This document shows, piece by piece, positions 38,781-64,000 of a stretch of 64,000 bases of DNA. Every line of letters begins with the position of its first letter. The first letter of the stretch is position 1. The DNA comes from Leptonemataceae bacterium (GTDB lineage Bacteria > Spirochaetota > Leptospiria > Leptospirales > Leptonemataceae): positions 1,248,001-1,312,000 of the forward strand of contig OZ245742.1 of NCBI GenBank assembly GCA_965227295.1, given 5' to 3'. Below the pieces are notes generated by a model. It made no database searches. It was not told the DNA's origin and was given only the letters and a program-made list of their open reading frames with translations. Position numbers and translations under genes: made by a program.

Positions 38781-40277
38781 ATGAGACGATACTTCAGCAC
38801 ACGCGCGGTTCACCTCGGATTGTGGACGCTCTTTCTGATGGCCGCCTGCGTTTTCCTCTGGAATCTTCTGTATGGCCCGTCCACCTGGACGGTCTTTCGC
38901 ACGACCATCCTCGAACTGGAGGTTTCCCTGGCGCTCCGGGTGGATTCGCTGTCCACGCTCCTGTTCGCCATGGTCTCGTTGCTCGGTGCCGCCATCGCGC
39001 GTTACGGCATTCGATACCTGGACGGCGAAGAACGGCAGTGGTACTTCTATCGTTACCTGGCGCTCACCGTTGTGGCGGTGTCGTTGTTCGTGCTTTCTTC
39101 TAACTTGCTGATGCTCTACGCCGCCTGGCTGGTGACGAGCTACGGCCTGCACAAGCTGCTCATTTACTACAGCGATCGCCCCCAGGCAATCTACGCCGCG
39201 CGCAAGAAGATCATCATCTCCCGCATCGGTGACGCCGTGCTGATCGCGGGCATCGCGCTCACGTACAACATCTTCGGTACGTTCGAGTTCGACGAAATCT
39301 TCGCCGAGGTGGCCTACATTTCCGCGGACTCTCCCGACGGACGCATGCTGGCCGTAGTCGGTTTTCTCTTCGTGGCCGGCGCCATGACCAAGTCGGCGCA
39401 ATTTCCGTTTCACTTCTGGTTGCCGGAAACCATGGAGACCCCCGCGCCGGTTTCCGCGCTCATGCACGCCGGCATCATCAACGCCGGCGGATTTTTGATC
39501 ACACGGTTGAGTCCCATCTTACAGGAAGCGACCGCGGCGCATCTCTTGCTTGTGCTCGTCGGCGCGTTCACGGCCGTCTTCGGTGTGCTGGTGATGATTA
39601 CGCAGAACGACATCAAAAAGAAGCTCGCCTACTCCACGATCGCGCAGATGGGCATGATGATGTTCGCCTGCGGTCTCAGCGCGTATACCGTGGCGCTCTT
39701 TCACATGTTCGCCCACAGCTTTTATAAGGCTCACGCCTTTCTTTCCACCGGTTCACTCATCGAAGAAACGAAGAAGATCGGCTTCAAACTCGTGCCGCCG
39801 CCGACCTTTGCCCTGTTGCTCATGAGTTTGATCGGACTGGGCATGGTGCTCTTCGGCCTGGAGTATGAGAACGGGAAACACTTCGCGCTCTTTACGTACG
39901 GCGCGGTGCTGTTCCTGGGGCTGTTTCAGAACATCGGCTCCGCGAAAGGGGAGCGTTATCCGGTACTGCGCGTCGGCCTCGGCATCTTCATCGGCCTCGG
40001 CATTGCCATCGGAGTCTACGCCCTGATTGAATACTCCATCGGTCGCTTCCTGCTGGGGCATATTCCGGAGGCCCTGGAGTCCGGCTCCTGGGCTTCGCCG
40101 CACGGCCTCGTCAGTCTTACGGCCTATGCGGTCTTCGTGGTCGGTCTGTGGCTGAGCGCCGCGCTCCAACGCCCTGCCGGCCCGCGTATGCGTCGCCTGT
40201 ACATGTATTTGTGGAACGGGGGATACTTCTCGCAGCAATCCACGCGAATCATTGCGAGCCTGGCTCCGGTTCGCTGA
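38781..40277 (+). CDS. dabB: DAB inorganic carbon pump, membrane subunit (NuoL-like)
   Basis: KSAQFPFHFWLPETMETPAPVSALMHAG and AHSFYKAHAFL; adjacent to dabA. Confidence 0.88.
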   Translation: MRRYFSTRAVHLGLWTLFLMAACVFLWNLLYGPSTWTVFRTTILELEVSLALRVDSLSTLLFAMVSLLGAAIARYGIRYLDGEERQWYFYRYLALTVVAVSLFVLSSNLLMLYAAWLVTSYGLHKLLIYYSDRPQAIYAARKKIIISRIGDAVLIAGIALTYNIFGTFEFDEIFAEVAYISADSPDGRMLAVVGFLFVAGAMTKSAQFPFHFWLPETMETPAPVSALMHAGIINAGGFLITRLSPILQEATAAHLLLVLVGAFTAVFGVLVMITQNDIKKKLAYSTIAQMGMMMFACGLSAYTVALFHMFAHSFYKAHAFLSTGSLIEETKKIGFKLVPPPTFALLLMSLIGLGMVLFGLEYENGKHFALFTYGAVLFLGLFQNIGSAKGERYPVLRVGLGIFIGLGIAIGVYALIEYSIGRFLLGHIPEALESGSWASPHGLVSLTAYAVFVVGLWLSAALQRPAGPRMRRLYMYLWNGGYFSQQSTRIIASLAPVR

Positions 40278-40299
40278 CTTTTAACGGGAGTAACTTAGC

Positions 40300-44049: not shown

Positions 44050-45405
44050 TTATTTCACATGAATCACGGCGATCATCACATCGTCCTTAAAACCTGCGAA
44101 GTCGTGGCGATTTCGGATGCGTTCCAGCACCGCCTCGATCAATGCCTCGCCGTCGAGTTCTTCGAGGCCGGCCAGAAGGACTTCCGCGTGAATGTCCGCG
44201 GTCTCACTGCCGTTGGAGCTTGCGTACTCGGTGAGACCGTCGGTGTAGAGAAAAAATCTGTCGCCCGGTTCCAGAGAGAAGGCCAGCTCTTGCGCGATGG
44301 GCCGCGCCACGCGATAGCCGAGCACGGAACCCTGCGTACGAATTTCCCGGAACGGCCGGCCCTGGGGTGCGTACATGGCCGCGGGATGACCGGCGTTCGC
44401 CAATCGCGCGCGCATGCGTTTGAAATCGAACATTACGTATACCGCCGACGCGTGATGACTGCCGAAGTCCCGGGACATGGTTTCGTCCAGGTGCTCCATC
44501 ATCTCCACGGGTTCCAGGCGCAGTCGGTACGGCATGCGCGCGAGTAGAACCTTAAGGGCCGCCGTCATCATGGCGCTGGAAATGCCGTGACCGGAGACGT
44601 CGGCCAGGAAGAGGCCCAGGTCGCCTTCGCGCAGGCGCACCAGGTCGTAAAAATCACCGCCGGTTTGATTCTCCGGCGAACGGTAGACGTCCAGGCGCAG
44701 GCGATCGTTCTCGCGGAAAGACGGAAAAAGATTCTCGTGTACTTTCTGCGCCATCGAAAGGTCGGCGCTCTCTTTCGCGATCTTACCGCGAAGTTCCAGA
44801 TAACGAACGCAGGCGAAGAGCAACACCGATTCGAGAAAGAGCGCGAGCAGGGCGGCCCATATCAATGTAAAGACGTGCTGAACCAGGAGCGCTTCGGATG
44901 CCTCGAAGTCCTGGAAGAACAAGATGTGGGCCAGCAAGAAGAGCAACACCGGCCAGCCGGAAAAACGGCCGGGGCGCAGGGCCTGCGATAATGTAAACGC
45001 GAGGTACGTTAAGAACTTTTCGTTTACATCCGCCGCACTCTCGGGCATGCCGAAGTGATACACGACGAGAAAGAGGGCGATGTAGTATACGGAGTAAAAG
45101 TATGAGTTCCACCGGTGGTGGACTTCTTTGAATGCGAAGAATGTGGTGACGACGGCGACGGCCACCAGGGATTCCATGAGTTCCGTTTGCGTACTTGCGT
45201 AAAGACCGGAGCCGTCCTCGAAGAAACCGAAGCTGAATTGAATCAGGCGCAGCAGGATTGTGCTCGCCCCGAAGATCAAGAGCGCGATGCGTTCAATGGA
45301 AGCGAGCAGGGCGCGCAACTGGCGGCCGTCCACGCCGCGGGGGACCTGGTTGCGCCAGAGGACGGTGTTCAGGAGATACGAGTAGCTTTTGGTCAGGTCG
45401 CGCAT
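44050..45405 (-). CDS. Membrane-bound SpoIIE/PP2C phosphatase
   Basis: GGDFYD, ADVSGHG, NAGHP, YTDGL, DD. Confidence 0.92.
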   Translation of the reverse strand: MRDLTKSYSYLLNTVLWRNQVPRGVDGRQLRALLASIERIALLIFGASTILLRLIQFSFGFFEDGSGLYASTQTELMESLVAVAVVTTFFAFKEVHHRWNSYFYSVYYIALFLVVYHFGMPESAADVNEKFLTYLAFTLSQALRPGRFSGWPVLLFLLAHILFFQDFEASEALLVQHVFTLIWAALLALFLESVLLFACVRYLELRGKIAKESADLSMAQKVHENLFPSFRENDRLRLDVYRSPENQTGGDFYDLVRLREGDLGLFLADVSGHGISSAMMTAALKVLLARMPYRLRLEPVEMMEHLDETMSRDFGSHHASAVYVMFDFKRMRARLANAGHPAAMYAPQGRPFREIRTQGSVLGYRVARPIAQELAFSLEPGDRFFLYTDGLTEYASSNGSETADIHAEVLLAGLEELDGEALIEAVLERIRNRHDFAGFKDDVMIAVIHVK

Positions 45406-45413
45406 GCCGCGGG

Positions 45414-45884
45414 TCAGCGCGCGGGGTAGTACACGATTTCGCGGACGATGGAGCCCTCGACGCGCAGTCCGATGTTCCAGCCCGTACGCAAGAAGTCATC
45501 CAGTTTTCTGAGCACCTTCAAACAGCGTGCCCGCGAACCGCAGGGATGGTGCAAGGCATGCGACGTGGCGTGAAAGGCCCATACCCCGGGATGAGTTGTT
45601 AATATCGTTACGAAGTGAGGCCCGTATTTTGCGACTTCGTCACCGTCGCGGACTTCATAAACAATGTGCGAGACATAGCGGCGGTTCGTTATGCGCGTTT
45701 CGATGCCCGATTCCACGTGCGGGTAGACGGAGTCCTCGGAGTAAACCGCGGAAGTTGTAAGTAATACTGAAAGTGCGAGCAGGAGGAAGAATGACTCCGA
45801 GGACCGAGGAAACCGAGGAGTTTTGGGAGGGGCGGCGTAGCCTGCACGTGTTCGGACTGCGAGAGCTGTCTTAGCCCGACCCAT
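45414..45884 (-). CDS. Hypothetical exported protein; start uncertain because it lies inside a repeat
   Basis: Signal-like FFLLLALSVLLTTSAVYS followed by a globular domain. Confidence 0.5.
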   Translation of the reverse strand: MGRAKTALAVRTRAGYAAPPKTPRFPRSSESFFLLLALSVLLTTSAVYSEDSVYPHVESGIETRITNRRYVSHIVYEVRDGDEVAKYGPHFVTILTTHPGVWAFHATSHALHHPCGSRARCLKVLRKLDDFLRTGWNIGLRVEGSIVREIVYYPAR

Positions 45885-45929
45885 CTTTTCAGCTCCTCAT
45901 GTTCTCCTCGAACCCTCGGTCCTCGGAGT
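45794..45929. repeat. REP/MITE-like element, second copy
   Basis: ACTCCGAGGACCGAGG at 45794-45809 and CCTCGGTCCTCGGAGT at 45914-45929. Confidence 0.8.
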
Positions 45930-46168
45930 TAATCCTTCTTTTTCTTCTTCAGCAACTTCCCGAGATTCTGCAACGATTGCGGCGACGCCTTCGCGGCCTC
46001 TTTGTTCTGTTCCTGAATTTCCTTGTAAACTTCTGTTCGGTGCACACTAACAGAACGCGGCGCCCGGATGCCCAGTTTGATCTGGTCGCCCTTGATGTCC
46101 ACGACCACGATCTCAATGTCGTCACCGATCATAATGGACTCGTTGATTCTGCGCGCGAGGACGAGCAC
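45929..46168 (-). CDS. csrA: Carbon storage regulator
   Basis: [34 protein letters not shown]. Confidence 0.97.
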
Positions 46169-46624
46169 TCAGGCACCCCCCTCGTCGAGATGTTCCAGGA
46201 TCGGAACGCGTACGTGGTGTTTGCCGTGATGTGAAATGACCTGGCGGCCCAGATTCTCCGCGCCTTTGCGGTACACCAGGATCGGGCCCTGCAGGTTTGC
46301 GGTCATCTTCTCGGGGCTGTCCTCGGGAATCGTGACGATGGAAAAAATCTCGCAGTCCTCGACCTTTTCGGTGCCCAGGGATTGCAGATCACCGGGGGCC
46401 ACCTGCGGTTTGTAAGCTTCGATGAACAGAGCCGGATCGATGACCACGAAGGCCAGGTTCGGATCGTTTACGGACTGGAGCCACTGAAACGGGCTCTCGC
46501 CGGATTCCGCGAGCATTACGAATTCGTGGAACTCCTGAAAACCGAAGAGACCGTCCGGGAATCGGATCAGCTCTCCGGATTCGACTTCCACTTCGCCGAG
46601 GGCTTTCGTAGTCAACGTTGGCAT
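46169..46624 (-). CDS. fliW: Flagellar assembly factor FliW
   Basis: FPDGLFGF, FQWLQS, MTANLQGP. Confidence 0.95.
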   Translation of the reverse strand: MPTLTTKALGEVEVESGELIRFPDGLFGFQEFHEFVMLAESGESPFQWLQSVNDPNLAFVVIDPALFIEAYKPQVAPGDLQSLGTEKVEDCEIFSIVTIPEDSPEKMTANLQGPILVYRKGAENLGRQVISHHGKHHVRVPILEHLDEGGA

Positions 46625-46656
46625 AAAAGAAAATACTAACCTTTGCGGGAATTACC

Positions 46657-47922
46657 TTAGCGCAGGAAATCCATCAGCTGCGGGCGGATGATGCGCGAGC
46701 CGACGTTCAGCGAGTACTGGTGAATCGTTTCAAGCCACTTAAGATTCATGATGGTCTCCGGGAAATCAATGCCCTCGCTTTCGGCGAGCAGCTCCTGCAT
46801 GTGCCCCTTATCCCAGGCGACGCGTTTGTCGTGTTCTTCCACGCGATTCTGGCGCGCGCCGACCTCGGCGCGATAACGTAACAGATTGTTCAGCGTTTCG
46901 TCGATGTTCGCCAGATCCCGGCCGCCGATTTCGGTGACGTCGCCGGCGAGCAGATCGTCGCGCAGTTTGATCAAAACATCGAAGGAACTCAGACCGGATA
47001 CCCGCGCGGAGTCGGCAAAATTGTTCGGCGGTTGCGAGTCGTCCGCGGAAATCAGCCCGAGATCTTGCAAGACGGTGCTGCCTTCCATATCTTCGAGCCA
47101 GATCTGATGCGGCGACGTGGACGACAGAGAAACAAAGTCCTGGCCGATGATCGACGCTTCCACCTCGAGGTTCGCGGCGTTGATCTTCGCAACGATGTCG
47201 TTGGCCGTATCGCCGGCGGCCACGCGAATTTCGGCGCCGTCGATGCGGAAAACCTGGTCGGTCGTGGCGCGATAGCCGGAGGTATCGGCAGACCCGGTCA
47301 CGGTCATGTTCGTTCCCCACAACGCTTTGTTGCCCGGAAAGTTCACGTCGATGTACTGATCGCGTTCGACCTCACGCAATTGTTTGCCGATGTCGCCGTG
47401 ATAGCGCACGCTTACGATTTGATTCTCTAACGTAACACCGTCGGCACCTTGAATGTTGGCCTGCACCGCTTCGAAGGGCGGGCGCTCCAGGGCGTGACCG
47501 GCGAACAGATAACGACCGGTGGCGTCCCGGGCGTTGCCGAGTTCGATCATGGCGCGCAGGTGTTGATCGATTTCTTTGGCGATGGCGTAGCGATCTTCGT
47601 TCTTTTCGCCGCCGTAGGTTCCGTTCGCACCCTGCACGGCCAGCACGCGGACGCGTTGCAGAATATCGGTAACCCGGGCCATCTCGCCGTCCACCAGGTC
47701 CAGGCGATTCTTTGCGTGCATGAGGTTCGTGTCGAACTGTTCGAGTTCATTGACGCGCGTGCGAAAGTACATTTGGTTTGTTGCAGCGGAAGGATCGTCC
47801 GCCGGCCGGCCGATGCGCCGTCCGGTTGCGAGCTGATCCTGTACTTTGTCGAACTCCCGCTGGTGCCGCTGCGTATTGCGCACCAGTGTGTTGTTTTTCA
47901 TGATATCAGTTATACGCATCAT
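46657..47922 (-). CDS. flgL: Flagellar hook-associated protein 3
   Basis: TGRRIGRPADDP, GRYLFAG, C-terminal LMDFLR. Confidence 0.93.
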   Translation of the reverse strand: MMRITDIMKNNTLVRNTQRHQREFDKVQDQLATGRRIGRPADDPSAATNQMYFRTRVNELEQFDTNLMHAKNRLDLVDGEMARVTDILQRVRVLAVQGANGTYGGEKNEDRYAIAKEIDQHLRAMIELGNARDATGRYLFAGHALERPPFEAVQANIQGADGVTLENQIVSVRYHGDIGKQLREVERDQYIDVNFPGNKALWGTNMTVTGSADTSGYRATTDQVFRIDGAEIRVAAGDTANDIVAKINAANLEVEASIIGQDFVSLSSTSPHQIWLEDMEGSTVLQDLGLISADDSQPPNNFADSARVSGLSSFDVLIKLRDDLLAGDVTEIGGRDLANIDETLNNLLRYRAEVGARQNRVEEHDKRVAWDKGHMQELLAESEGIDFPETIMNLKWLETIHQYSLNVGSRIIRPQLMDFLR

Positions 47923-47997
47923 AAGGTTATCCTAGGATCGATCGTCGTTGCCCCTGGCGCTCTAGCTTCACAAACTCTTTATCTTAAACCCTCGTTC

Positions 47998-48013
47998 CCT
48001 CGGTCCTCGGAGT
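47998..48013. repeat. Single arm of the REP/MITE-like repeat
   Basis: CCTCGGTCCTCGGAGT between flgK and flgL. Confidence 0.75.
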
Positions 48014-48024
48014 AGATTTTTTAG

Positions 48025-49971
48025 TTAAGCACCCATCCGATTGATGATCACTTCCAGCAGTTGATCCATTGTGTTGATCACGCGGGCGCTCGCGTTGTAC
48101 GCGTGCTGGAACTGCACCATGTTCGACATCTCTTCGTCGAGGCTCACGCCCATCACCGACTGACGAAAGTTGTTCAGTGAAACGAGGTCGTCCTTCAAAC
48201 GCAGCGAGGCGTCCGTGGCCGTGCGGGACTCGGTGCCGAGCTTCGCGATCAACGCGTTGTAGAATTCCTCGGCGTTCACCTCGCGGCCGACCATGTGCGA
48301 GTCCTGTTTCAACGACGCCGCGATCAACAGCGCGTTCGAACCGTCGCCGATGCCGCCCGGAGTGTTGTAATCGCCGGTGCCGCCGACGTCCCGGCCGCGA
48401 CCCGCGGCCACGCTGGCCGGATCCCGGCCCACGTCGTCGGAGACTTCCATGTAGGCGGCCGGATGAAAGACCGGCGTCAGCGTAAGGTCTTCCAGCGGCG
48501 CCCGCAGTTTCGAAAGTTCGTTGATGCGCCGGTAGTCGAAGGCCCCGGCCTGTCCGCTACTCTGGAGGACACCGGCATAGCCGACTAACAGCTCGCCGCT
48601 GTCTTCTAAGTGGCGAATCATGAAATTCGTGCGGCGATCACCCTCGGGCAGATCGGCGCGGGTGGCCTTAAACGAAAGCTGGTTGTCGTGGTTCAGGTAC
48701 GCCACGACGCCGGCGCCGGAGTCGTTAATGCGCCCGATGATCTCATCCATAGTTTCGTCGCGGGAGTAGTCGATGCGCACCGGCGAGTTGTTCGGGTCGT
48801 TCTTGTGCAGCGTGATGGTGCCGTCCACGCCGACGCGTTGCGTGGCGTCGATCTCGTTGGTACCGGTCACGCGAAAGAGGGCCGTGACTTCCGCGGAGCC
48901 GTCCTGGTTAAGGTCGAAGTTCCCGGAGGCGTTCTGGATGATGTACGAGCCGCGGGCGTTTGCGGACAGCGGACGCAGGTCAAAGAAGTCTTTGTTCGTG
49001 GTGCCGTTCATGCCGAAGCCGTCGCGGTGCACCTCGTTGACGATGTCGCTGATGTTCAGCGCGAAGGAATCCACGCTGTCGATGCGGTCTACGATGGAAA
49101 CGTCGCGCATCTCCAGCAGGCCGAGCAGCTTGCCGCCGCCGAGTACGATGTCGCGATCGTTGTGCTCCCACAGAACTTTGGCCATGCCCTCGTTCTGCGG
49201 ATCGGGTACGGTCTTTAACTTACGCTGGATTTCACCTTGTACTAAAGCTTGCTCGCCGATGAACACGAACAGTTCGTCGCGGTCGTTGCGCCCCACGCGC
49301 ACGTTCACAATTTTGGAAAGTTCTTCCAGGGCCGCGTCGCGTTTGTCCTTAAGATCGTTGGGCATGTCACCCAGGGCCTCGATCTTCAGAATGCGTTCGT
49401 TGAGATCGCGAATCTGACCGGCCAGAGAGTTGAGGCGATCCACTTCCGTGATTACCTCGCGGTTCGCGCGCTCACGCAAATCCGCGAGCTTGCCGTAGAC
49501 ATCATTGACGCGCGTCGCGAGGGCGCGACCGCGTTCCACGACCACTTCACGATGGGACATGTCCGCCGGAAAGTTGGCGAGCTCCTGCCAGGAGGCCCAG
49601 AAGTTGTTGGAAAGATTTCGCAGCGAGTTGTCGGAGGGTTCGTTGAATACGACCTCCATTTGCTCCAGATAGAGCTGCTTCGTATCCCAGAAATTTTTGT
49701 CGTTCTCCGCGACGATGATTTGATCGTCGTAAAACGCGTCGCGGATGCGTTCGATCTGCGCGACTTGAGCGCCCTGTCCCAACTGCCCTTTGGAGTTGGC
49801 CCGGTTCAGAGACGGGTTGTAGAGCGGGTCCATCGAGGTCATGGTGACCCGCTGGCGCGCGTAGTGTTCGTTGTCCGCGTTTGATATGTTATGGCCGGTC
49901 GTATTCAGCGCGGTCTGATGCGTAAACAGACCCCGCTTGCCGATTTCCAGGCCGCCGAATGTTGATCCCAT
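48025..49971 (-). CDS. flgK: Flagellar hook-associated protein 1
   Basis: [14 protein letters not shown] and [23 protein letters not shown]. Confidence 0.96.
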
Positions 49972-50104
49972 GGCGATCTCCCGGGTGCCGCCTCCGAATC
50001 GGGGCGCACCACCATGCTAGATCCGTCGGCGGAAGAGGAAAAAACCTGAACGGATTTTTAGTTTCGCACTTTACAAATCTCCAGTATGTTCTATTCTCTG
50101 GATT

Positions 50105-55745: not shown

Positions 55746-57452
55746 GTGCAATCGGATGGCAATGAAAAAAAACCGGCGCCGGATTCCCGCGTGAATCTGG
55801 CGCACACTGTATTGAGAGATGCGCTCGATGCAAAAGGTTTCGCCGAATTTACCGTTCGGGGCGAAAGCATGTATCCGTTGCTTCGTCCCGGGATGACGAT
55901 CCGCGTTGTTCGCTGTGCGGAGAAAGATCTGCGCGTGGGAGACATCATCATCTTCCGCAGCCGCGACGATCTTCTGGCACATCGAATCGTCGCAAAGCAT
56001 GGCTCCTCCCTCTGGATCGCAAAAGGGGATAATACCTTCATTTCGGACGACCCCGTCGCTTTCGAGGAGATCCTCGGCCGGGTCATCGCCGTCGCCGGGG
56101 AGGAGTACATCTACGGTTCTCGCGACGTGATGCTTGCGCGGCTCTCGCACCGTCAGGGTCGCATCGTTTCCGAACTGCGTTCTCGCAGCGAACGCCGACG
56201 ATCGTCGACCGGCCGGCGCGTGAAACGCGAGAACGTCCTGGCCTGGCCGCTGCGCCTGGCGTTGCGTCCGTATCTGTGGTTGGTGCGTCTCATCGCGGCC
56301 GGACATCCGAACCGCGACGGCGGGCGCCTGCCCATGGACGACACAGTCGACATACATCCGGGCACGCTGCAAATGGTTCGCCGTCGTGCCGCGGTCGCCG
56401 GCCGGCCCGCCACGGATTTGAGCTGGGTCGCCGTGGATCCGTTGATCGGTTTTCTGGGCGATGCGTTGCGAACTTCACCGCCGCGACCGGAACGCCTGGC
56501 GAAGTACATGCAGACCTGGAACGCCGCGGTGCGGGCGCTGCGTTGCCTGGCGGACGCAAACATTCAGACAATCATCTTTAAGGGCCTGGTCTTCGCGGAA
56601 GAACTCTACGACAGCCCGTTGCATCGTCCCATGCGTGATGTGGATTTGCTCGTGCGCCCGGACGACTTCGCGGCGGCGTGTCGCTGTTTGTCGGCCGCGG
56701 GTTTTATGATTCATGACGACTTTCCGGAGCGGCGCCCCCATGCGGTTTCGGACGCGGAAGTTTTCCCGGCGGATGCGTGGGCGCCGGGAGAGCTGACCTT
56801 CGTCGATGAGCGCGGAGTGGAGATCGATCTGCACTGGCATCTGATTCCGGAACACTGGCTACGCCCATGCCGTAACATACTTTTAGATGAAGTCTGGCGA
56901 GACGCTCGCCCCTTTCAATTCGAAGGCGGCAGTGTCTGGACCATGAGTGACGTACATACGGCCGCGTACCTGACGTTGAATCTGAGCCGCAACGCTTATC
57001 GTTCTTTATTCGCGTACCTGGATCTGGATCGATTGTGGCGCCGGCAGGGCCGTGACTTCGCGCAAGAGTTCTTCGATACGTGTCGGCGCTGGCGCATTCG
57101 CATCGCCGCGGATTATGCCCTTCGTTACTTGAAGTATTTGTGCGACACTCCGGTACAGATTTCGCGGCGACTGCGCCTGCGTCCGGGTCTGCCGCGGCCG
57201 GTTCGTCTCTTAAAAGATTCGCGACGCTGGCGCAGTGACGGTTACATGTACTTCGTGCAACTGGCGACACTGGACCGGCTGCGCGACGCCCTGGGCGTCA
57301 TCGTGCGGTTGGTTCTTCCTCCGCGCGGTTGGTTGCGACGACGCTACGGTGAGCGGGCTTCGTTCGTCCATCACTGGAGGCACGTCTTTCGTGCTTTGAC
57401 GGAACGGCGGACGAACTCAGGGAATGCGGACGGAACCGATGGGACTCGTTGA
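55746..57452 (+). CDS. S24/S26 peptidase fused to a nucleotidyltransferase (NTP_transf_5-like)
   Basis: N-term GESMYPLL..GDIIIF..AHRIV..KGDN; C-term FKG..LY..RPMRDVDLLV..IDLHW. Confidence 0.85.
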   Translation: MQSDGNEKKPAPDSRVNLAHTVLRDALDAKGFAEFTVRGESMYPLLRPGMTIRVVRCAEKDLRVGDIIIFRSRDDLLAHRIVAKHGSSLWIAKGDNTFISDDPVAFEEILGRVIAVAGEEYIYGSRDVMLARLSHRQGRIVSELRSRSERRRSSTGRRVKRENVLAWPLRLALRPYLWLVRLIAAGHPNRDGGRLPMDDTVDIHPGTLQMVRRRAAVAGRPATDLSWVAVDPLIGFLGDALRTSPPRPERLAKYMQTWNAAVRALRCLADANIQTIIFKGLVFAEELYDSPLHRPMRDVDLLVRPDDFAAACRCLSAAGFMIHDDFPERRPHAVSDAEVFPADAWAPGELTFVDERGVEIDLHWHLIPEHWLRPCRNILLDEVWRDARPFQFEGGSVWTMSDVHTAAYLTLNLSRNAYRSLFAYLDLDRLWRRQGRDFAQEFFDTCRRWRIRIAADYALRYLKYLCDTPVQISRRLRLRPGLPRPVRLLKDSRRWRSDGYMYFVQLATLDRLRDALGVIVRLVLPPRGWLRRRYGERASFVHHWRHVFRALTERRTNSGNADGTDGTR

Positions 57453-57902
57453 ACAGGAGTCGGCCGCGTCCGTGTCTGTCGGGCAGGCTTCGTAGAGTTT
57501 CAGGGTGCCCCCGTGTTCCGCGAGCATGCCGGCGGAAACCGTAATCAGAATGGTGTGTCGATCGCCGGCGGCCACTTCCAGTTCCAGCGGCTGGGCGTAC
57601 TCTTCGTCTCCTCGCGGGTTTTGTAAGAGCAGGGGCGCGGGCCGGTCGTCGATCCAGGCGCGGATTTCTTTCAGTAAAATGATTTCATGAAAGCGCCCCG
57701 GGTTCTCCACTTCTATGCGTCCGACTTCCACGGCCGCCGATCGATCCGGCGGCACGGTCACCGCCTGGCGAAACAAGAATCGGGCGCGCGCCCGTCCGTC
57801 GTCTAATGTTGTACCAAAGAATATTAACGCAACAAAGAATGCCGTGATTCCGGCGCTCCAGAGAAGAGCCATTGTAGTCACGGAAGCACGGATGGTACTC
57901 AT
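57417..57902 (-). CDS. Small membrane-anchored hypothetical protein
   Basis: ATG at 57902 overlaps the methyltransferase stop (ATGA); one N-terminal TM. Confidence 0.55.
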   Translation of the reverse strand: MSTIRASVTTMALLWSAGITAFFVALIFFGTTLDDGRARARFLFRQAVTVPPDRSAAVEVGRIEVENPGRFHEIILLKEIRAWIDDRPAPLLLQNPRGDEEYAQPLELEVAAGDRHTILITVSAGMLAEHGGTLKLYEACPTDTDAADSCSTSPIGSVRIP

Positions 57903-58735
57903 GATGCCGCGCCTGTCAGGGCGAAGTGCACCTGCTCGACGGCCGGGGCGAGGGCGCCCTCTTCGACGTCGACAATGTGCAGGCCGGCCGCGGCGAACTC
58001 GGCTTCGACTTCCGCGCGGTTCCGGAAGTAGTGAATGAACTCCACTCGAAAATGATCGCCGGACTGCACGGCCGTGTTGCCGAAGCTCAGGCAAGCGAGC
58101 GCCTTTTTCCACGCCATGAAGCGCCGACCGATCCCCGGGCCGATGTAGGCCGAGAGCACGATCACGCCGGATTCTCGTAACATTCGTTTACACTTTCTTA
58201 AGAGGTCCTCCCGGTGGCGTCGCCCGGGTATGCACGAGTACATGCCCGGAGAAATGATGACAACGTCGTAGAGCGGGGCGTCGGCATCATCCGGAAAGGC
58301 CGCGATGTTTTTGTCGAAAGGAACGACGCCGCGTTCGAAGTGAGCGCGGTCACCGAAACTCTGCGTATTTTGCCGCGCGCTTTCGAGGATGGCCGGGATG
58401 CCCTCGACGCCGGTGACGTGAAAGCCATGGTCGAGGAGCACCAGGGCCTCCCGGCCGCCGCCGCAAAAAAGGTCCAGGGCTTGCGGCGGCGCGGACTTGC
58501 TCCGGCCCCGGGCAATGGGAAAGACCCGGCGTTCGTACATAAGCCGTTCGCCCTCGGAAAGAAAACCGCTCCGATTCATGGCCGGCCCCTGCCAGACCGC
58601 GGCATGGCCGCTGTAGAGTCCGGCGCTGAACCGGGAGAGCCGGTCCGGTGGTAGAATGCAGAGCGTGGTCACGTCGACGGCGTTGCGGACGACGGTGGCG
58701 ATCTTGCGTAGAATGCGTACCAGAAGAATCTTCAT
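57899..58735 (-). CDS. Class I SAM-dependent methyltransferase
   Basis: ALDLFCGGGRE, VTGVE, YDVV. Confidence 0.88.
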   Translation of the reverse strand: MKILLVRILRKIATVVRNAVDVTTLCILPPDRLSRFSAGLYSGHAAVWQGPAMNRSGFLSEGERLMYERRVFPIARGRSKSAPPQALDLFCGGGREALVLLDHGFHVTGVEGIPAILESARQNTQSFGDRAHFERGVVPFDKNIAAFPDDADAPLYDVVIISPGMYSCIPGRRHREDLLRKCKRMLRESGVIVLSAYIGPGIGRRFMAWKKALACLSFGNTAVQSGDHFRVEFIHYFRNRAEVEAEFAAAGLHIVDVEEGALAPAVEQVHFALTGAAS

Positions 58736-60967: not shown

Positions 60968-61031
60968 AAAAAAAACATAGTGATTTAATCAAACGGTGTG
61001 CGTAAATATGATTTATAGTTGACGTTCACTC

Positions 61032-61391
61032 ATGGCCGGTGTCACTTTCGCACTCATGACTGAAACACAGAATCGCCCTCCGGAAAGTCAGGGCATCGCC
61101 ATTACTGAGGAGACTCGATTTCAAGCGCACGAAGATCTTTCGTGGCGTGAAATCGAAGGACAAATGGTTTGCATGAACCTGAAGTCCGGCGAGTACTTTA
61201 CGTTCAACGGAGTCGGCCGGGAAATCTGGCAGGCTGTTGCGGACGAGCGCGGTAATACGCGGGACATCGTCGCGAAGATTGTAAGTGAGTATGCGGTCGA
61301 AGAAAGTGTTGCGCAAAAGGATAGTAAAGAATTCTTAAGAAACTTGCTGGAAGCCGGTTTGATTCGGCCTGTGGATAGTCAACAAAATTGA
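61032..61391 (+). CDS. PqqD-family RiPP recognition element (RRE)
   Basis: WREIEGQMV..GEYFTFNGVGREIW..IVSEYAV....A..D...FL..L.EAGLI; start could be 61056. Confidence 0.92.
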   Translation: MAGVTFALMTETQNRPPESQGIAITEETRFQAHEDLSWREIEGQMVCMNLKSGEYFTFNGVGREIWQAVADERGNTRDIVAKIVSEYAVEESVAQKDSKEFLRNLLEAGLIRPVDSQQN

Positions 61392-61432
61392 TGAATCGTT
61401 CATCGACGACAGTTTAACTTTCGAGGGTAACT

Positions 61433-61585
61433 ATGAAAAACGAAAAGAAAAAGTATGAGTCGCCGTCACTGGAAAGCCGGAATGGCGGTAAAGACTACGC
61501 CGCTCCGACGTTCGAGCGCCACAATCCGCTCAACGAAGTGTCGGCAACCTACTACTATACGTACTACTACTATTACTACTACTGA
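61433..61585 (+). CDS. Putative RiPP precursor, 50 aa, poly-tyrosine core (below the ORF-track size cutoff)
   Basis: GAGGG RBS at 61423-61427; MKNEKKKYESPSLESRNGGKDYAAPTFERHNPLNEVSATYYYTYYYYYYY; fills the gap between the RRE and kinase genes. Confidence 0.88.
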   Translation: MKNEKKKYESPSLESRNGGKDYAAPTFERHNPLNEVSATYYYTYYYYYYY

Positions 61586-61594
61586 GAGAAAGCG

Positions 61595-62680
61595 GTGATC
61601 GGGTTACCGGGGCTTCCCATCGAAGTAGCCGGCCCGCCTTCTCCGGTGCGGGATGCAGTCGAAGCGGCTTTCGGCTTCTGCGCATTTCGAAATAGTAGCG
61701 ATACAAATCACATACGGCTGGAGGTTCGTTTTCTCGATAGCGAGTCCGAATCTCTGGCGGCCCGGGTTCCGGGATTCCTGAGCGCCCGCGTGGCGCTTCT
61801 GGAGCAGGAGCCTTCGCCCGTGTCCTCCGGTCTGGCTTACGTCAGTGAAGGGGGCAGCCGGCAGGGTTCCGGAACCGTCCTTGCAGATCCGCATTCCATA
61901 TGCGCGGCCTGGAGCGACTCCGCAGAGTCGCTGTCCTTATACGTCCGCAAGCGACGGCCAGAACCGGGCCTTTTGCCGTCCGTGCAAGCCCTGCTGATCC
62001 CCCTGCTGCGCGACCTTCTCCTTCGAAGAGATGCCTGTCTCCTTCATGCAGGCTCGGTCCGCACGCGGAACGATGAGGGATTGCTGGTCCTCGGAGATAA
62101 TGGAGCTGGAAAGACTACGGCCGTTCTGGCGCTGGCCCGGGCGGGAGGAGCCTTGCTTGCCGACGATCTGAACGTTTTGCGCAGGGCCGAGAGCGATGCT
62201 CGCCCATCGTTTGAAATCTGCGCGGTCCCGGAAGCGATCAATCTGACCGAGGACGAGAACACGGCGCGCTTTTTTCCGGAGCTGGCCGGTAGTCTGGGGC
62301 GAGCCCGGCCGGAGAACGATCGGCCGAAGGTAGCGGTTGCGCCCGATGAAGTCCTGCAACGACTCGGGGCGACGTCACGAACGGATCGTTGCTTCGCGAA
62401 CGGAGTTTTGATTCTGGATATCACGCCGGAGACTCCGTCCGCGTCGGAACGATTCGAAAGACTGCCGGCAGCACAGGTGTTGCCGTTGCTCCTGCGGGCC
62501 AACGTCTTCGCCGGTGGACAATCACCGGGAGCGGCCTTCGCAAATCTCGCGGAGTTTGTGGAAACCGTTCCGGGATACCGTGTGCGCACGGGGCCCGACC
62601 CGGCTGAAATGGCCCGGGAGATCTTGAACTACTTTGGGCATACACACGTAGCCGGGAGCATTCCCGGAGGGAGAGCATAA
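61595..62680 (+). CDS. HPr-kinase-related P-loop kinase
   Basis: LLHAGSV..GDNGAGKTT..LLADD. Confidence 0.87.
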   Translation: MIGLPGLPIEVAGPPSPVRDAVEAAFGFCAFRNSSDTNHIRLEVRFLDSESESLAARVPGFLSARVALLEQEPSPVSSGLAYVSEGGSRQGSGTVLADPHSICAAWSDSAESLSLYVRKRRPEPGLLPSVQALLIPLLRDLLLRRDACLLHAGSVRTRNDEGLLVLGDNGAGKTTAVLALARAGGALLADDLNVLRRAESDARPSFEICAVPEAINLTEDENTARFFPELAGSLGRARPENDRPKVAVAPDEVLQRLGATSRTDRCFANGVLILDITPETPSASERFERLPAAQVLPLLLRANVFAGGQSPGAAFANLAEFVETVPGYRVRTGPDPAEMAREILNYFGHTHVAGSIPGGRA

Positions 62681-64000
62681 ATGAACGCAAGCGCGGAGAA
62701 CACAGCACAGTCCTGGCCGCAAATGGAAGCCCTGCAGCGTCTCATGCGAGTCAGATCGCTGTTGCAAGACGGGCTGTCTTCGCTACCGGCCCTGATCGAC
62801 ATCCTGGCCGGCGACGATCCCACCGCGGCGGCCGAGGCGCACCAGGGTTTGATGGGCATGCTCCCGCTGGCATCCCTCTATGAACGGCGGCCCGAGGATT
62901 TTGTCGTCGCGGATGCGGACGAAATTCGCGCACCGATCCCGGATTGGCTGAAGGCGTCGTGTGATGGATGGGGGACCACGGAAGACTTCGCCTCTTTATG
63001 CGTGGAGCGTCTTGCGGAATTCCGCACCGGAGCACCGGAGCGTGCTCGCGTATTGCTGGAGCGCCTGGTAAACTTCTGGGGTATTCGGCGCCGGCTGGCC
63101 GAACTGCTCGAGGCGCGCGGTTTGAGCGATCTGCGCCGGACGTACGAAGAACTCATCGTCGAGACGGATGACATTCATTTTCCCGAGCAGATCTGCCTTT
63201 CGCCGACCCAGGCCTGTCAGCTCAAATGTTCGTTTTGTTACTCCGCGGATCTTCCTAATGTACACAAAGATGATATTAGCGACTCGAAGACACTTGAGCT
63301 GCTCGACTGGATGCATTCTAAGAACATTAAGCGTCTGAGTTTCGCCGGCGGCGAGCCCACATTGTTCCGCTACTTTCCGGCGCTCATTCGCAAAGCCGCC
63401 GAATACAAAATGGAAATCTTTCTTACGACGAACGGCCTCATGGCGCCGGCCGTCGTAGACGCGCTCATCGAAGTTCGACCGTTGTGCATCACCATGCATC
63501 TTACCGAAGAGGTTCTGGACGCACCGAAGCTCCTGGCACTCTTCGAACGCAACGCTCGGTCTTTCCTTGACCAGGGCATCTATACGATCATCCGGGCGAA
63601 CTTCATGGAGCCGGAGCAGGACCTGGAGCGCTACTTTCACACGGCGGAGAAACTGGGCATCAAAGAGATTCGTTGCGCCGTGCCCGTTCCCTCCGAACAA
63701 AGCGGTCACGATTACGTGCGCGAAGAGGACATGGACGCCATGGGGCGTTATCTCGGGGACTTCGTCGCCGGCGGGGCCCGGCGCGGTATCAAAACGGTAC
63801 TCAGTAAACCCTTTCCGGTCTGCAAACTTCCGGAGCACGCGGCGAAGGCCTTCCTGGCCAACGGCTCTCTCGGCGTGAATTGTCCGGTCCATCTTACGGA
63901 CTACTCGCACAACATCATGCTGTATCCGGACGGGAGTTTTTCGCCCTGCCTCGCTTTGAATATGAAGAGCGGCACGACCATCTACGATTATGACGGTGTC
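62681..64000 (+). CDS. Radical SAM enzyme with probable SPASM/twitch region (partial; absent from ORF track because no stop lies in the window)
   Basis: Open frame from ATG 62681 to the end; CQLKCSFC at 63215-63238, FAGGEP, TTNG, then NCPV..MLYPDGSFSPC. Confidence 0.92.
   Translation, partial: MNASAENTAQSWPQMEALQRLMRVRSLLQDGLSSLPALIDILAGDDPTAAAEAHQGLMGMLPLASLYERRPEDFVVADADEIRAPIPDWLKASCDGWGTTEDFASLCVERLAEFRTGAPERARVLLERLVNFWGIRRRLAELLEARGLSDLRRTYEELIVETDDIHFPEQICLSPTQACQLKCSFCYSADLPNVHKDDISDSKTLELLDWMHSKNIKRLSFAGGEPTLFRYFPALIRKAAEYKMEIFLTTNGLMAPAVVDALIEVRPLCITMHLTEEVLDAPKLLALFERNARSFLDQGIYTIIRANFMEPEQDLERYFHTAEKLGIKEIRCAVPVPSEQSGHDYVREEDMDAMGRYLGDFVAGGARRGIKTVLSKPFPVCKLPEHAAKAFLANGSLGVNCPVHLTDYSHNIMLYPDGSFSPCLALNMKSGTTIYDYDGV

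Follow-up and report, generated by a model that had tools for sequence, protein, structure and literature searches.

Besides streptide, the RiPPs cross-linked by radical SAM/SPASM enzymes include darobactin, the triceptides and the ryptides, the triceptides being three-residue cyclophanes in which a radical SAM enzyme of the 3-CyFE type cross-links an aromatic-x-x motif. The combination of a PqqD-type chaperone with a SPASM enzyme is also at work on the way from PqqA to PQQ and from MftA to mycofactocin, where the target is a Tyr near the C-terminus of the peptide and where further enzymes are required. As for B12 radical SAM enzymes, the one in the biphenomycin-like pbs system joins two ortho-Tyr residues by a C-C bond, after an MNIO enzyme has produced the rings from the Phe residues of an FHAFRF motif (PMC12257519), and CysS and TokK are iterative C-methylases, CysS lengthening the methoxy group on an aryl ring to ethoxy, isopropoxy and butoxy (PMC12846815). 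Clusters for phosphorylated lasso peptides (paeninodin, pseudomycoidin and Bsf type) consist of the genes A, B1, B2, C, D, K and N. Lasso leaders carry the motif Y-x-x-P-x-L at positions -17 to -12 (PMC10368454), and in these clusters the kinase phosphorylates Ser while the nucleotidyltransferase adds a hexose on the phosphate (PMC9266682, PMC7533575).

In the window, by which we mean the whole 64-kb stretch of DNA analyzed here, a short ORF encodes the 50-aa peptide MKNEKKKYESPSLESRNGGKDYAAPTFERHNPLNEVSATYYYTYYYYYYY, with four Lys among its first seven residues and ten Tyr among its last eleven (Table 1). With high probability this is the precursor of a RiPP, of a so far unnamed family that is apparently rare and undescribed. 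Full-text searches, with most subscription journals and supplements outside their scope, gave no paper on a Tyr-rich or poly-tyrosine RiPP precursor among the matches listed, the one related finding being the work on biphenomycin, and no curated family covers a Tyr-run precursor. The frame is open from position 61418, without any start codon earlier than the ATG, and the tail is coded ACC TAC TAC TAT ACG TAC TAC TAC TAT TAC TAC TAC TGA, i.e. with TAC and TAT in the ratio 8:2 in the Tyr run of the core. A good ribosome binding site, the ATG, the Lys-rich start, these very tail codons and the stop right after the run had all been listed in the first-pass annotation, and were borne out by reading and translating the sequence. 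The same annotation took the ORF to be hidden, which it is not, as the exact 50-aa sequence is already present, nameless, in the public NCBI/ENA protein collection.

Table 1. Features of the precursor locus, numbered from the first nucleotide of the window.
Feature	Position	Strand	Basis or remark
S24/S26-type peptidase domain (residues 34-114) fused to NTP_transf_5 nucleotidyltransferase (residues 256-465)	55746..57452	+	PF00717, PF14907
SAM-dependent methyltransferase, 278 aa	57899..58735	-	Methyltransf_25/12/11; cluster membership uncertain
Wzy_C / O-antigen-ligase-like membrane protein, 735 aa	58760..60967	-	PF04932, E 1.9e-11; cluster membership uncertain
PqqD-family peptide chaperone (RiPP recognition element), 119 aa	61032..61391	+	PF05402, E 1.5e-16
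Shine-Dalgarno-like GAGGG	61423..61427	+	Read from sequence; 5 bases 5' of precursor ATG
Precursor peptide gene	61433..61585	+	50 codons + TGA; ATG at 61433, TGA at 61583-61585
Predicted leader, residues 1-38	61433..61546	+	Boundary deduced from the lasso-type spacing (-17)
Leader recognition motif Y-A-A-P-T-F, Tyr22 to Phe27	61496..61513	+	Lasso-type Y-x-x-P-x-L/F at -17 to -12
Predicted core, residues 39-50	61547..61582	+	Thr, 3 Tyr, Thr, 7 Tyr
HPr-kinase-like kinase, 361 aa	61595..62680	+	Weak PF07475 and TIGR04352 matches
Radical SAM/SPASM peptide maturase, 487 aa	62681..64000	+	PF04055; continues to window-equivalent 64144

Out of 19 TRF rows for the window, the sole period-3 array is the Tyr-run stretch (61549-61583; 11.7 copies, 82% matches), which would fit an ORF arising by accident from a (TAC)n microsatellite, or an error in the assembly. 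Against this, Logan contigs from two runs cover 61000-62700 with no differing letters and no gaps, and thereby agree base for base also on the TAC repeat count, a point that the first-pass annotation had singled out for checking; the two runs (X1 at depth 208 and X2 at depth 9.8, from one study) may be the source of the assembly and so do not count as independent support. A search through all six frames of the whole 5.94-Mb genome (5,938,550 bases) for at least six Tyr per 11-residue window had the precursor as its single match. Moreover, the Tyr frame is kept in other loci despite differing TAC/TAT orders and a G+C content ranging from 37% to 60%, and the stop codon always comes directly after the run. 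Conserved loci, family peptides and synonymous turnover, as described in the following, refute the microsatellite and artefact explanations, to which we assign practically no probability.

Relatives of the radical SAM/SPASM gene were found in a total of 19 loci (the window, plus 4 out of 7 rows, plus 11, plus 3), while L021-L023, with 27-30% identity over 80-140 residues in the radical SAM core only, were dropped. Six of the 19 (L025, L026, L027, L030, L032 and L033) were too short to judge. A small same-strand ORF ending in a Tyr run is found in 12 of the 13 loci whose sequence upstream of the radical SAM/SPASM gene was long enough to assess, corresponding to about ten distinct peptides since several loci are near-identical, and the 13th locus (L031) starts within a peptide, partial for that reason, that ends I-F-F-Y-F. 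A Y-x-x-P-like string in L038 turned out to be a chance occurrence, overlapping the kinase ORF in a different frame, whereas extension of the flank revealed the true peptide at a more upstream position. By means of a profile search of 1.84 billion proteins, 29 matches were obtained at E <= 0.001, of which 28 are peptides of 29-60 aa with the same leader and Tyr tail, counted from sequences alone, without genomic context; the remaining one (P0013), a 1000-aa repeat protein, was dropped. Synonymous to nonsynonymous codon differences between loci (of 26 codons) amounted to 5:0 (L019/L028), 10:1 (L018/L034), 9:1 (L020/L034) and 7:2 (L018/L020). The earlier claim of a selected peptide, as opposed to a random repeat, is thus upheld by conservation in all but one of the 13 assessable loci, by the 28 additional members of the family and by the synonymous exchange of TAC and TAT.

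Peptides with Tyr cores occur in Nitrospirota and Desulfobacterales MAGs, in a Syntrophotaleaceae homologue (naming of the source) and in the phylum of the window genome itself. The cluster was not found in the two genomes of the same genus, and no radical SAM orthologue turned up in a search of 40 other genomes belonging to this genus, family or order, where the highest score apart from self was 42.6 bits, versus 1130.6 for self; the "matches" counted for 22 of the 41 genomes are generic radical SAM cores. The G+C content of the cluster (0.594) equals that of the genome (0.598), and consequently gives no sign of recent transfer. No Pfam or NCBIfam family matches the window peptide, and when 32 family peptides were compared with curated models the sole matches were four weak ones, with E 0.0057 at best, to NF033528, a model for lasso precursors.

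In addition to the recognition motif, the leader holds an earlier, degenerate Y-x-x-P copy (Tyr8-Pro11), and the family pattern reads Y-x-x-P-x-F...H-x-P-L-x-S-V. Both the Tyr and the Pro of the motif are invariant in 32 aligned peptides, and Phe at -12, His at -9, Pro at -7 and Leu at -6 are found in 28, 27, 27 and 26 of 33, respectively. With Tyr22 placed at -17 by the lasso spacing, Ala38 becomes -1 and Thr39 becomes +1, and the cleavage site predicted by this analogy, Ala38/Thr39, has about an even chance of being correct. The first-pass annotation had put the cut at the same place, i.e. after L-N-E-V-S-A, by a lasso Thr(-2) rule; the position does fit the spacing of the motif, but the residue at -2 is Ser in this peptide instead of Thr, and Ser (20), Ala (7), Gly (4) or Thr (2) in the 33 family members.

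The predicted core is 12 residues long in the window peptide, versus 8 in 17 of the 33 family cores. Family cores are dominated by Tyr (216 of 312 residues, about 70%), followed by Thr (35) and Ser (8), with Val, Ile, Phe and Trp also represented; 21 of 33 peptides end in Tyr. Asp, Glu and Cys are found in none of the 33 predicted cores, in agreement with the earlier remark that the residues for a lasso ring or for thioethers are lacking. Cores devoid of Cys rule out a sactipeptide or other thioether peptide, and with no Asp or Glu no lasso ring can form.

The precursor belongs to a tight co-directional row consisting of the PqqD chaperone, the precursor, the HPr-kinase-like kinase, the radical SAM/SPASM enzyme, an ABC exporter and a B12 radical SAM enzyme, with an NTP_transf_5 nucleotidyltransferase nearby, and wherever a relative of the radical SAM enzyme could be read in its surroundings, this gene set recurs. 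Being short, with a one-codon-family run, and lying directly before an operon, the ORF might be suspected of being a regulatory leader peptide, whose Tyr codons sense charged tRNA-Tyr and attenuate the downstream genes in the way that His, Phe and Trp operon leaders act by attenuation, and a stable hairpin does follow the peptide stop in three of five sister loci (z -4.8, -2.4 and -2.0). We consider this highly improbable, seeing that just nine bases separate the precursor stop from the kinase gene, that searches gave neither a terminator-like site nor an Rfam match, that the downstream genes encode peptide-modifying enzymes rather than Tyr biosynthesis, and that the N-terminal part shows conservation at the protein level and fits a motif for chaperone binding, which attenuation does not need. 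The Tyr run also ends exactly at the stop codon.

Compared with the phosphorylated lasso clusters, the shared components are the leader motif Y-x-x-P-x-L/F, a discrete PqqD-type B1, an HPr-kinase-like K, an "uncharacterised nucleotidyltransferase" N, an ABC exporter D (here without a peptidase domain) and, in five sister loci, a B2 transglutaminase-like peptidase before B1. The best NCBIfam matches of the PqqD protein are lasso PqqD chaperones, below the cut-off (50.1 of 80 bits), and its orthologues are located directly before the precursor in seven loci. Co-folding of the PqqD protein with the precursor scored 0.52, versus 0.01 for the best control. Of 80 solved complexes, 58 reach the mark applied, as do two of 110 mismatched pairs; just 7 of those 80 complexes, together with both passing mismatches, do so at scores of 0.60 or lower. 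No fewer than 72% of the contacts are common to the runs, with a partner pLDDT of at least 54. This model lends weak support to a PqqD-leader pairing, and may reflect no more than likeness to solved lasso B1-leader complexes. The B2 peptidase directly precedes the PqqD gene in L017, L019, L024, L028 and L029, with scores of 19.6-31.3 bits for the sister-locus peptidases against a cut-off of 33 (NF033537).

What the loci do not share with lasso clusters is a cyclase above cut-off; in its place each cluster has between two and four radical SAM genes. The ATP-dependent lasso cyclase is an asparagine synthetase homologue, and no ORF of the window cluster matches PF00733, the nearest AsnB-like matches in the window genome being more than 160 kb away, and no locus has a lasso cyclase above the curated cut-off. 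The AsnB-type gene of L019, L028 and L029 has an intact MCGICG N-terminus, and passes the cut-off for glutamine-hydrolysing asparagine synthase (400.6 of 267.1 bits) but fails that for lasso cyclase (232.3 of 525 bits). A true lasso peptide, with neither such a cyclase nor a ring-closing Asp or Glu at core positions 7-9, was therefore rejected.

The composition of the clusters varies. NTP_transf_5 occurs in the window and in 9 of 15 loci (L017, L019, L020, L024, L027, L028, L031, L032 and L034), with stand-alone genes in sister clusters, and a Kdo/WaaP-like kinase in 7 of 15 (L019, L020, L024, L028, L030, L032 and L034); in L019, kinase and nucleotidyltransferase are fused in one 717-aa protein. 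The window cluster is without the second radical SAM gene (about 326 aa), the Kdo/WaaP-like kinase and the B2 peptidase of many sisters, and, given these three missing genes, may be reduced or partly decayed. A search for the B2 peptidase (PF13471) in the window genome, which is 93.55% complete, gave no match at E <= 0.01. The peptidase-NTP_transf_5 fusion, which scores 47.5 of 51.85 bits with the model for archaeal-type signal peptidase I, is by its domains a candidate leader peptidase and tailoring enzyme. Neither the methyltransferase, which is specific to the window genome's version of the cluster, nor the Wzy_C / O-antigen-ligase-like gene, which is divergent from the PqqD gene, has a match in the other loci.

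HPr-kinase-like genes are present in 9 of the first 16 loci, i.e. the window and 8 of the other 15, and in L039, with two such genes in L020. The strict motif His...G-x-x-G-x-G-K-T...D-D is found in the window protein, in L019, in L028 and in two L039 proteins, and, if the first position may be either Gly or Ala, in all seven proteins compared; a homologue search with the kinase returned just itself and one weak match. His, G-x-x-G-x-G-K-S/T and D-D make up the catalytic motif of the lasso precursor kinase BsfK (PMC10368454). The core could serve mainly to carry O-linked groups, its many Tyr and Thr hydroxyls being loaded with phosphate, nucleotide or sugar by the kinase(s) and the nucleotidyltransferase; this loading would then define the class, the radical SAM enzymes having a minor role such as epimerisation or a single methylation, an explanation that overlaps with the one preferred here and was the first option of the first-pass annotation. 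In its favor are the kinases of both types and the nucleotidyltransferases listed above, including the fusion in L019, the known action of the same pair in lasso clusters, Ser phosphorylation and hexose addition (PMC9266682, PMC7533575), and the hydroxyl borne by nearly all core residues. We nevertheless regard it as unlikely. BsfK, the one lasso kinase tried on a Tyr substitute, left the Ser3Tyr variant unphosphorylated (PMC10368454); the tail in L031 is mostly Phe, which has no hydroxyl, and other cores include Trp, Phe, Val and Ile; and nothing else in the gene set is as constant or as costly as the radical SAM genes, of which a cluster has two to four.

The radical SAM/SPASM maturase is itself rare, with nine relatives in 5.8 billion proteins. 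Eight sequences share invariant C179, C183 and C186 (CxxxCxxC) and seven invariant C-terminal Cys, and the AF2 model (pLDDT 83.5) has a helical N-terminal extension of 165 residues. SuiB, the enzyme of streptide (SuiB/StrB), is the best match both by sequence (E 2.9e-14) and by fold (Z 20.8, rmsd 4.0, 294 aligned). Over residues 167-487, it is followed by anSME (Z 20.1) and SkfB (19.4), and ChlB is also matched, these four being tied within about 2 Z, so that the fold cannot tell cross-linking from thioether formation, oxidation or epimerisation. In both streptide and the present loci a small precursor stands beside a SPASM enzyme, but here the chaperone is a separate PqqD protein, identity is only 17-18%, and the helical extension takes the place of the built-in recognition domain. 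Relative to the SPASM cross-linked RiPPs in general, the core is a homopolymer and not a spaced motif, and the B12 radical SAM enzyme, kinase and nucleotidyltransferase are extra. The Tyr run supplies aromatic-x-x triplets, and no triceptide- or cyclophane-named NCBIfam model is found among the best 25 of 51 matches to the maturase. By analogy with these systems, aromatic side chains are the likely targets of the SPASM enzyme.

In the B12 radical SAM enzyme, which combines a B12-binding domain (PF02310) with PF04055, the nearest sequences are CysS (E 1.1e-36) and TokK (1.4e-29), the same two that top the Foldseek matches, and the KedN5 C-methyltransferase subfamily is matched below its cut-off (E 2.1e-35; 122 of 700 bits). 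By this kinship the enzyme may be a class B (cobalamin) radical SAM methylase, with a peptide substrate and methylation itself both presumed by analogy, as CysS and TokK act on small carrier-bound molecules, not peptides, and have about 19% identity to it. As a further likeness to CysS, an ordinary SAM methyltransferase is found nearby in the window cluster, not conserved in the sister loci. With the biphenomycin-like pbs system the locus would share a RiPP whose Tyr-type rings are acted on by a B12 radical SAM enzyme, but there is no MNIO here and the B12 enzyme is nearest to CysS/TokK. As a lead only, residues 440-733 of the enzyme score 0.83-0.84 to DUF4080 fragments in the ESM Atlas.

The pairing of a PqqD-type chaperone with a SPASM enzyme, and a Tyr at or near the C-terminus of the peptide (C-terminal in 21 of 33), are shared with PQQ and mycofactocin, and PqqE is among the fold matches of the maturase (Z 18.3). 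Nonetheless, a peptide that serves as sacrificial source of a small Tyr-derived molecule, e.g. a redox cofactor or quinone, is in our opinion improbable: the window enzyme reaches 23.6 of 265 bits with the mycofactocin maturase (MftC) model and the L020 orthologue 29.9 of 381 bits with that of PqqE, the scanned cluster genes match no family of the further PQQ or mycofactocin steps, the core has many Tyr instead of one, and a dedicated ABC exporter and leader peptidase favor a secreted peptide.

All enzyme matches in the cluster lie below the curated cut-off of any named family, and each reaction proposed is consequently an analogy. The first-pass annotation saw in the core a scaffold for O-modification or aryl coupling, with which the conserved neighbors are consistent, as they include candidate enzymes for both, i.e. 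the HPr-kinase-like kinase and nucleotidyltransferase on the one side and the radical SAM/SPASM and B12 radical SAM enzymes on the other. Tyr cross-linking, C-methylation and O-phosphorylation of the core are what we infer from these analogies. In the first step, the PqqD protein would very likely bind the leader and offer the core to the enzymes. The SPASM enzyme would then abstract a hydrogen from the core, leading to C-C or ether cross-links that involve Tyr rings, a step whose chances we judge to be evenly balanced, and at least one C-methyl group could be added by the B12 radical SAM enzyme, with nearly the same chances. More tentatively, a core hydroxyl might be phosphorylated by the kinase (Thr39 or Thr43 being likelier than Tyr), and the phosphate extended by the nucleotidyltransferase as in the phosphorylated lasso peptides. 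The leader would be cut at the predicted, evenly weighted site, with the fused S24/S26-type domain as a rather doubtful candidate for the peptidase in the window genome and the lasso B2 peptidase in that role in sister loci. Finally, the product would probably be exported by the ABC transporter.

Taken as a whole, the cluster can tentatively be read as a new RiPP class grown from a phosphorylated-lasso cluster, in which radical SAM enzymes have replaced the cyclase to make a fused polyaromatic Tyr ladder. According to the same reading, the leader, the B1 protein, the B2 peptidase, the kinase, the nucleotidyltransferase and the exporter would have been kept, and two to four radical SAM enzymes would stitch and methylate a core of typically eight residues into a rigid ladder. 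To our knowledge, such a scaffold has no counterpart among known natural products. If true, the ladder would be synthesized in the absence of oxygen, and it might show redox activity or bind metals.

A core of almost nothing but Tyr, kept by selection across distant lineages, makes an unusually clear lead for genome mining, and a tractable one, with a tiny substrate, few adjacent enzymes and expected mass shifts that are easily read (-2 Da per cross-link, +14 per methyl and +80 per phosphate). It might bring to light new reactions of radical SAM enzymes on aromatic rings. It also indicates that lasso-type leader recognition and cleavage are re-usable by a quite different maturation route, which bears on how RiPP classes evolve and on how mining tools classify such clusters.

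The small ORF ends in the codons ACC TAC TAC TAT ACG TAC TAC TAC TAT TAC TAC TAC, and its translation gives a product of 50 residues in which Tyr occupies ten of the final 11. No start codon was found further upstream in its frame. The first-pass annotation had read the ribosome-binding site, the ATG and the tail in just this way, but it had also called the ORF hidden; the exact peptide is already present, unnamed, in public protein collections, i.e. gene callers do see it. A six-frame scan of the genome (5,938,550 bases) found no other stretch with at least six Tyr per 11 residues, and the repeat is the sole period-3 array detected by TRF in the 64-kb window. The surrounding region (61000-62700), in which the TAC repeat count had been marked earlier for a check of read support, is reproduced with 0 differences by contigs from two public runs, both belonging to a single study and possibly the assembly's own source.

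The genes from the PqqD gene to the exporter gene form a co-directional row with gaps of 41, 9, 0 and 7 bases, and the listed start of the B12 radical SAM gene overlaps the exporter end by 58 bases. Farther upstream lie a sulfatase, an M78 peptidase-like gene and flagellar genes, while no asparagine-synthetase-type gene was found near the ORF. The S24/S26-type peptidase domain of the upstream fusion comes near the cut-off of the archaeal signal peptidase I model (47.5 of 51.85 bits). In none of the sister loci was the nucleotidyltransferase seen fused to such a domain; there it is separate or joined to the kinase (L019:2545-4698, 717 aa). A listed 231-aa ORF (57417-58112, minus strand), which overlaps the methyltransferase ORF by about 210 bases and has no family match, probably has a start listed too early or is not a gene. 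Elsewhere in the window, a DabB-like protein of the proton antiporter family paired with DabA (38781-42786), a probable inorganic carbon uptake system, is followed by a SpoIIE-type phosphatase and flagellar hook-associated genes (44050-49971).

Features of the Tyr-peptide cluster and hairpins in sister loci; window-equivalent (w.e.) coordinates carry the window numbering past its end at 64000
Feature	Position	Strand	Remark
Peptidase (S24/S26-type) domain + NTP_transf_5 nucleotidyltransferase fusion	55746-57452		upstream of PqqD gene
SAM methyltransferase	57899-58735	-	upstream of PqqD gene
Wzy_C-like membrane protein		-	upstream of PqqD gene
PqqD-family protein	61032-61391	+
Shine-Dalgarno-like GAGGG	61423-61427	+	read from sequence
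Precursor ORF	ATG 61433, TGA 61583-61585	+	read from sequence, translated
HPr-kinase-like protein	61595-62680	+
Radical SAM/SPASM protein	62681 to w.e. 64144	+
ABC exporter without peptidase domain	w.e. 64152-65903	+
B12-binding radical SAM protein, 733 aa	TTG start w.e. 65846 (as listed), end w.e. 68047		after exporter
Metallo-beta-lactamase-fold protein, 496 aa			12 bases after B12 radical SAM gene
Hairpin after precursor stop	L019:7772-7850		z -4.8
Hairpin after precursor stop	L017:7713-7810		z -2.4
Hairpin after precursor stop	L024:4838-4930		z -2.0

The radical SAM protein is of a rare family, with nine relatives at 34-41% identity recovered from 5.8 billion proteins by word-seeded searching; an orthologue was found in 0 of 40 related genomes. 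Alignment-based scans, with the protein and its relatives as query, identified orthologous loci in species genomes (four, after exclusion of three further weak rows) and in metagenome contigs (11), and a sample of 401 genomes from the window's own phylum added three more distant relatives. Out of the total of 19 loci, including the window, six break off inside the kinase or radical SAM gene, or shortly ahead of it, and were left out. In 12 of the 13 assessable loci, a small ORF with a terminal Tyr run and an immediate stop lies upstream on the same strand; the contig of the 13th (L031) begins within a peptide with the C-terminus I-F-F-Y-F. Several loci are near-identical, so that the distinct peptides number about ten. 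A search with a five-peptide profile gave 29 matches at E <= 0.001 among 1.84 billion representative proteins. One of them, an unrelated repeat protein, was discarded; the other 28 peptides are 29-60 residues long, combine the same leader with a Tyr tail, and are known without genomic context.

Close loci, compared over 26 codons, differ mostly by synonymous changes (synonymous/nonsynonymous: L019/L028, 5/0; L018/L034, 10/1; L020/L034, 9/1; L018/L020, 7/2), and the order of TAC and TAT varies by locus over a G+C range of 0.37-0.60. These two observations establish that the ORF is a selected peptide and not a repeat, as the first-pass annotation had mainly maintained, and a chance repeat or artefact is left with next to no probability.

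Variants were also observed among the loci. The Phe-rich tail in L031 (L031:1-48), which precedes a kinase gene and a radical SAM gene of 30% identity, would argue against the hydroxyl being essential. The distant relatives from the window's phylum (L039:6760, L040:8435 and L041:6896 (-)) keep Tyr-run peptides with other linkers, i.e. a G-S-G stretch and then L-Y-Y-x-S-L-Y-Y, the leader of L041 being quite different, and their clusters have two additional small radical SAM genes. In the MAG contig L018, the precursor frame (31-138) contains no start codon (ATG, GTG or TTG) downstream of the preceding stop, and an ATG stands in another frame directly before an A run, likely the result of an assembly indel.

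The gene set conserved across loci, as identified by tblastn and Pfam, consists of a PqqD chaperone, the precursor, a large SPASM radical SAM enzyme, an ABC exporter, a B12 radical SAM enzyme, an HPr-kinase-like protein (two copies in L020, joined to the nucleotidyltransferase in L019) and NTP_transf_5. In many loci a second, ~326-aa radical SAM protein is encoded in addition, as is a Kdo/WaaP-like kinase. Immediately 5' of the PqqD gene, L017, L019, L024, L028 and L029 encode a transglutaminase-like protein, whose sole NCBIfam match is the lasso B2 peptidase, slightly below cut-off. In addition, a group of three closely related loci encodes an asparagine synthase (L019:4835-6730, L028 and L029) that keeps the MCGICG amidotransferase N-terminus and scores above the cut-off for true glutamine-hydrolysing asparagine synthase, not above that for the lasso cyclase. 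A full asparagine synthase adjoins B2-B1-precursor in this subclade only, and might amidate the peptide C-terminus. A search of the window's genome found neither B2 nor the small radical SAM gene nor a Kdo-like kinase. Among the loci compared, the peptidase-nucleotidyltransferase fusion, methyltransferase, Wzy_C-like protein and beta-lactamase-fold protein occur in this genome alone. The window's cluster is a reduced one, and its core is atypically long.

Two same-genus genomes conserve the flagellar genes (46000-49972) and a block from about window-equivalent 72480 (L001:12480, in the stretch downstream of the window) at 70-78% identity, and in both these flanks lie only ~3.5 kb apart. About 22 kb including the whole cluster is therefore specific to the window's genome. 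This stretch (~50000 to ~72480) holds the M78 peptidase-like gene, a 905-aa sulfatase, the entire Tyr-peptide cluster, a TPR protein and a HAD hydrolase; the G+C of the cluster does not differ from that of the genome, and the stretch is a variable island that G+C does not set apart. Among named records, the cluster occurs in MAGs of Nitrospirota and Desulfobacterales, one radical SAM homologue is labelled Syntrophotaleaceae by its source, and in the window's phylum a relative was found in 4 of 401 sampled genomes, the window's own included.

One Tyr and one Pro are invariant in the leaders of 32 aligned peptides, and the leader Tyr precedes the first Tyr of the run by 18 or 19 residues for 31 of the 33 distinct peptides. 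For lasso leaders, PMC10368454 describes a conserved Y-x-x-P-x-L spanning positions -17 to -12, and this -17 rule was applied to the 33 peptides; all core boundaries are accordingly predictions. Leader positions are dominated by Phe at -12 (28/33), His at -9 (27/33), Pro at -7 (27/33) and Leu at -6 (26/33), the -2 residue is small (Ser 20, Ala 7, Gly 4, Thr 2), and +1 is most often Thr (14) or Val (11). Predicted core length has a sharp mode of eight residues (17/33). Tyr accounts for 216 of 312 core residues and is C-terminal in 21 peptides, while Asp, Glu and Cys occur in 0 of 33 cores. In the window peptide the rule would place the cut between Ala38 and Thr39, releasing the same 12-residue core as had been proposed from the lasso analogy. 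The curated lasso precursor model matched 4 of 32 peptides weakly and no other model matched. The window leader has a second, degenerate Y-x-x-P copy (Tyr8-Pro11), a duplication shared with the family peptide P0039. The modal core falls inside the lasso ring size of 7-9, with the C-terminus as the cores' only carboxylate. Long cores of 28 and 20 residues (P0033 and P0036), with several Tyr runs split by Thr, Arg or Ser-Lys-Pro, may be multi-unit cores.

Stable hairpins directly 3' of the precursor stop were observed in three of five folded sister loci and may set the precursor:enzyme transcript ratio. The window has none, because its gap to the next gene is only 9 bases. The same short gap, the finding of neither a terminator nor an Rfam match, and the conservation of the leader as protein make a Tyr-sensing attenuator very improbable.

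All enzyme assignments are under curated cut-offs. The SPASM enzyme keeps CxxxCxxC and seven further invariant Cys in the alignment, and its model (pLDDT 83.5) has a helical N-terminal extension of ~165 residues. The nearest fold to its core and SPASM part is SuiB (Z 20.8, rmsd 4.0, 294 aligned), also its top sequence match, followed by anSME (Z 20.1), SkfB (19.4) and ChlB (18.7). The modelled fold thus suggests a peptide-modifying SPASM enzyme and, these four being closely tied, does not single out a reaction. The B12 enzyme is nearest, by both sequence and fold, to the iterative C-methylases CysS (E 1.1e-36) and TokK (1.4e-29), and matches the KedN5 C-methyltransferase subfamily below cut-off. 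The kinase has the same His, G-x-x-G-x-G-K-T and D-D motif that has been reported in lasso precursor kinases. According to passages in PMC9266682, PMC10368454 and PMC7533575, such kinases phosphorylate a precursor Ser in lasso clusters, B1 accelerates this step, and a nucleotidyltransferase puts a hexose on the phosphate. The co-fold of PqqD and precursor scored 0.52 vs 0.01 for the best control (contact agreement at least 72%, partner pLDDT at least 54). Of 80 solved complexes, 58 reach the mark applied, as do two of 110 mismatched pairs; at 0.60 or under, only seven of the solved complexes do so, along with both passing mismatches. This lends the modelled pairing weak support, and the score may show likeness only, because lasso B1-leader complexes are solved.

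Sequence comparison shows the ORF to be a conserved precursor tied to the PqqD/SPASM/B12/kinase/exporter enzyme set, and the general account is probable. In the mechanism that we favor, each chemical step of which is tentative and given an even chance at best, the PqqD protein would hold the leader while the SPASM enzyme cross-links the Tyr-rich core, the B12 enzyme would methylate carbon, and kinase and nucleotidyltransferase would decorate a hydroxyl; the leader would be removed at Ala38|Thr39 and the exporter would release the product. The reduced cluster, the atypically long core and the assignments under cut-offs count against this mechanism, as does BsfK, which the relevant part of PMC10368454 describes as not accepting Tyr instead of Ser. 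A mainly O-decorated scaffold, which overlaps with the favored mechanism, seems unlikely. Still less probable is that the peptide is sacrificed to supply a small molecule derived from Tyr, as happens for PQQ or mycofactocin, since scores against the curated models fall far short and the cluster has an exporter.

Compared with known systems, the Tyr-peptide system is like a hybrid, sharing the front end of phosphorylated lasso peptides (leader, B1, B2, kinase, nucleotidyltransferase and exporter) and the kind of maturation enzymes found in radical SAM RiPPs. As a lasso peptide it was rejected: three of four defining features tested are absent from the window (B2, cyclase and an acidic acceptor residue), the last being missing in all 33 predicted family cores, and no locus examined has a lasso cyclase above the curated cut-off. 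The system is a member of "radical SAM/SPASM RiPP with PqqD-type recognition element". No curated Pfam/NCBIfam model (June 2026 release) covers the peptide or names the enzymes, and no description of a Tyr-run precursor was found in the main texts of openly searchable papers. The ORF is a real and rare gene for the precursor of a RiPP family that is apparently undescribed, and this family has a fair chance of proving to be a new class when its modification is established.
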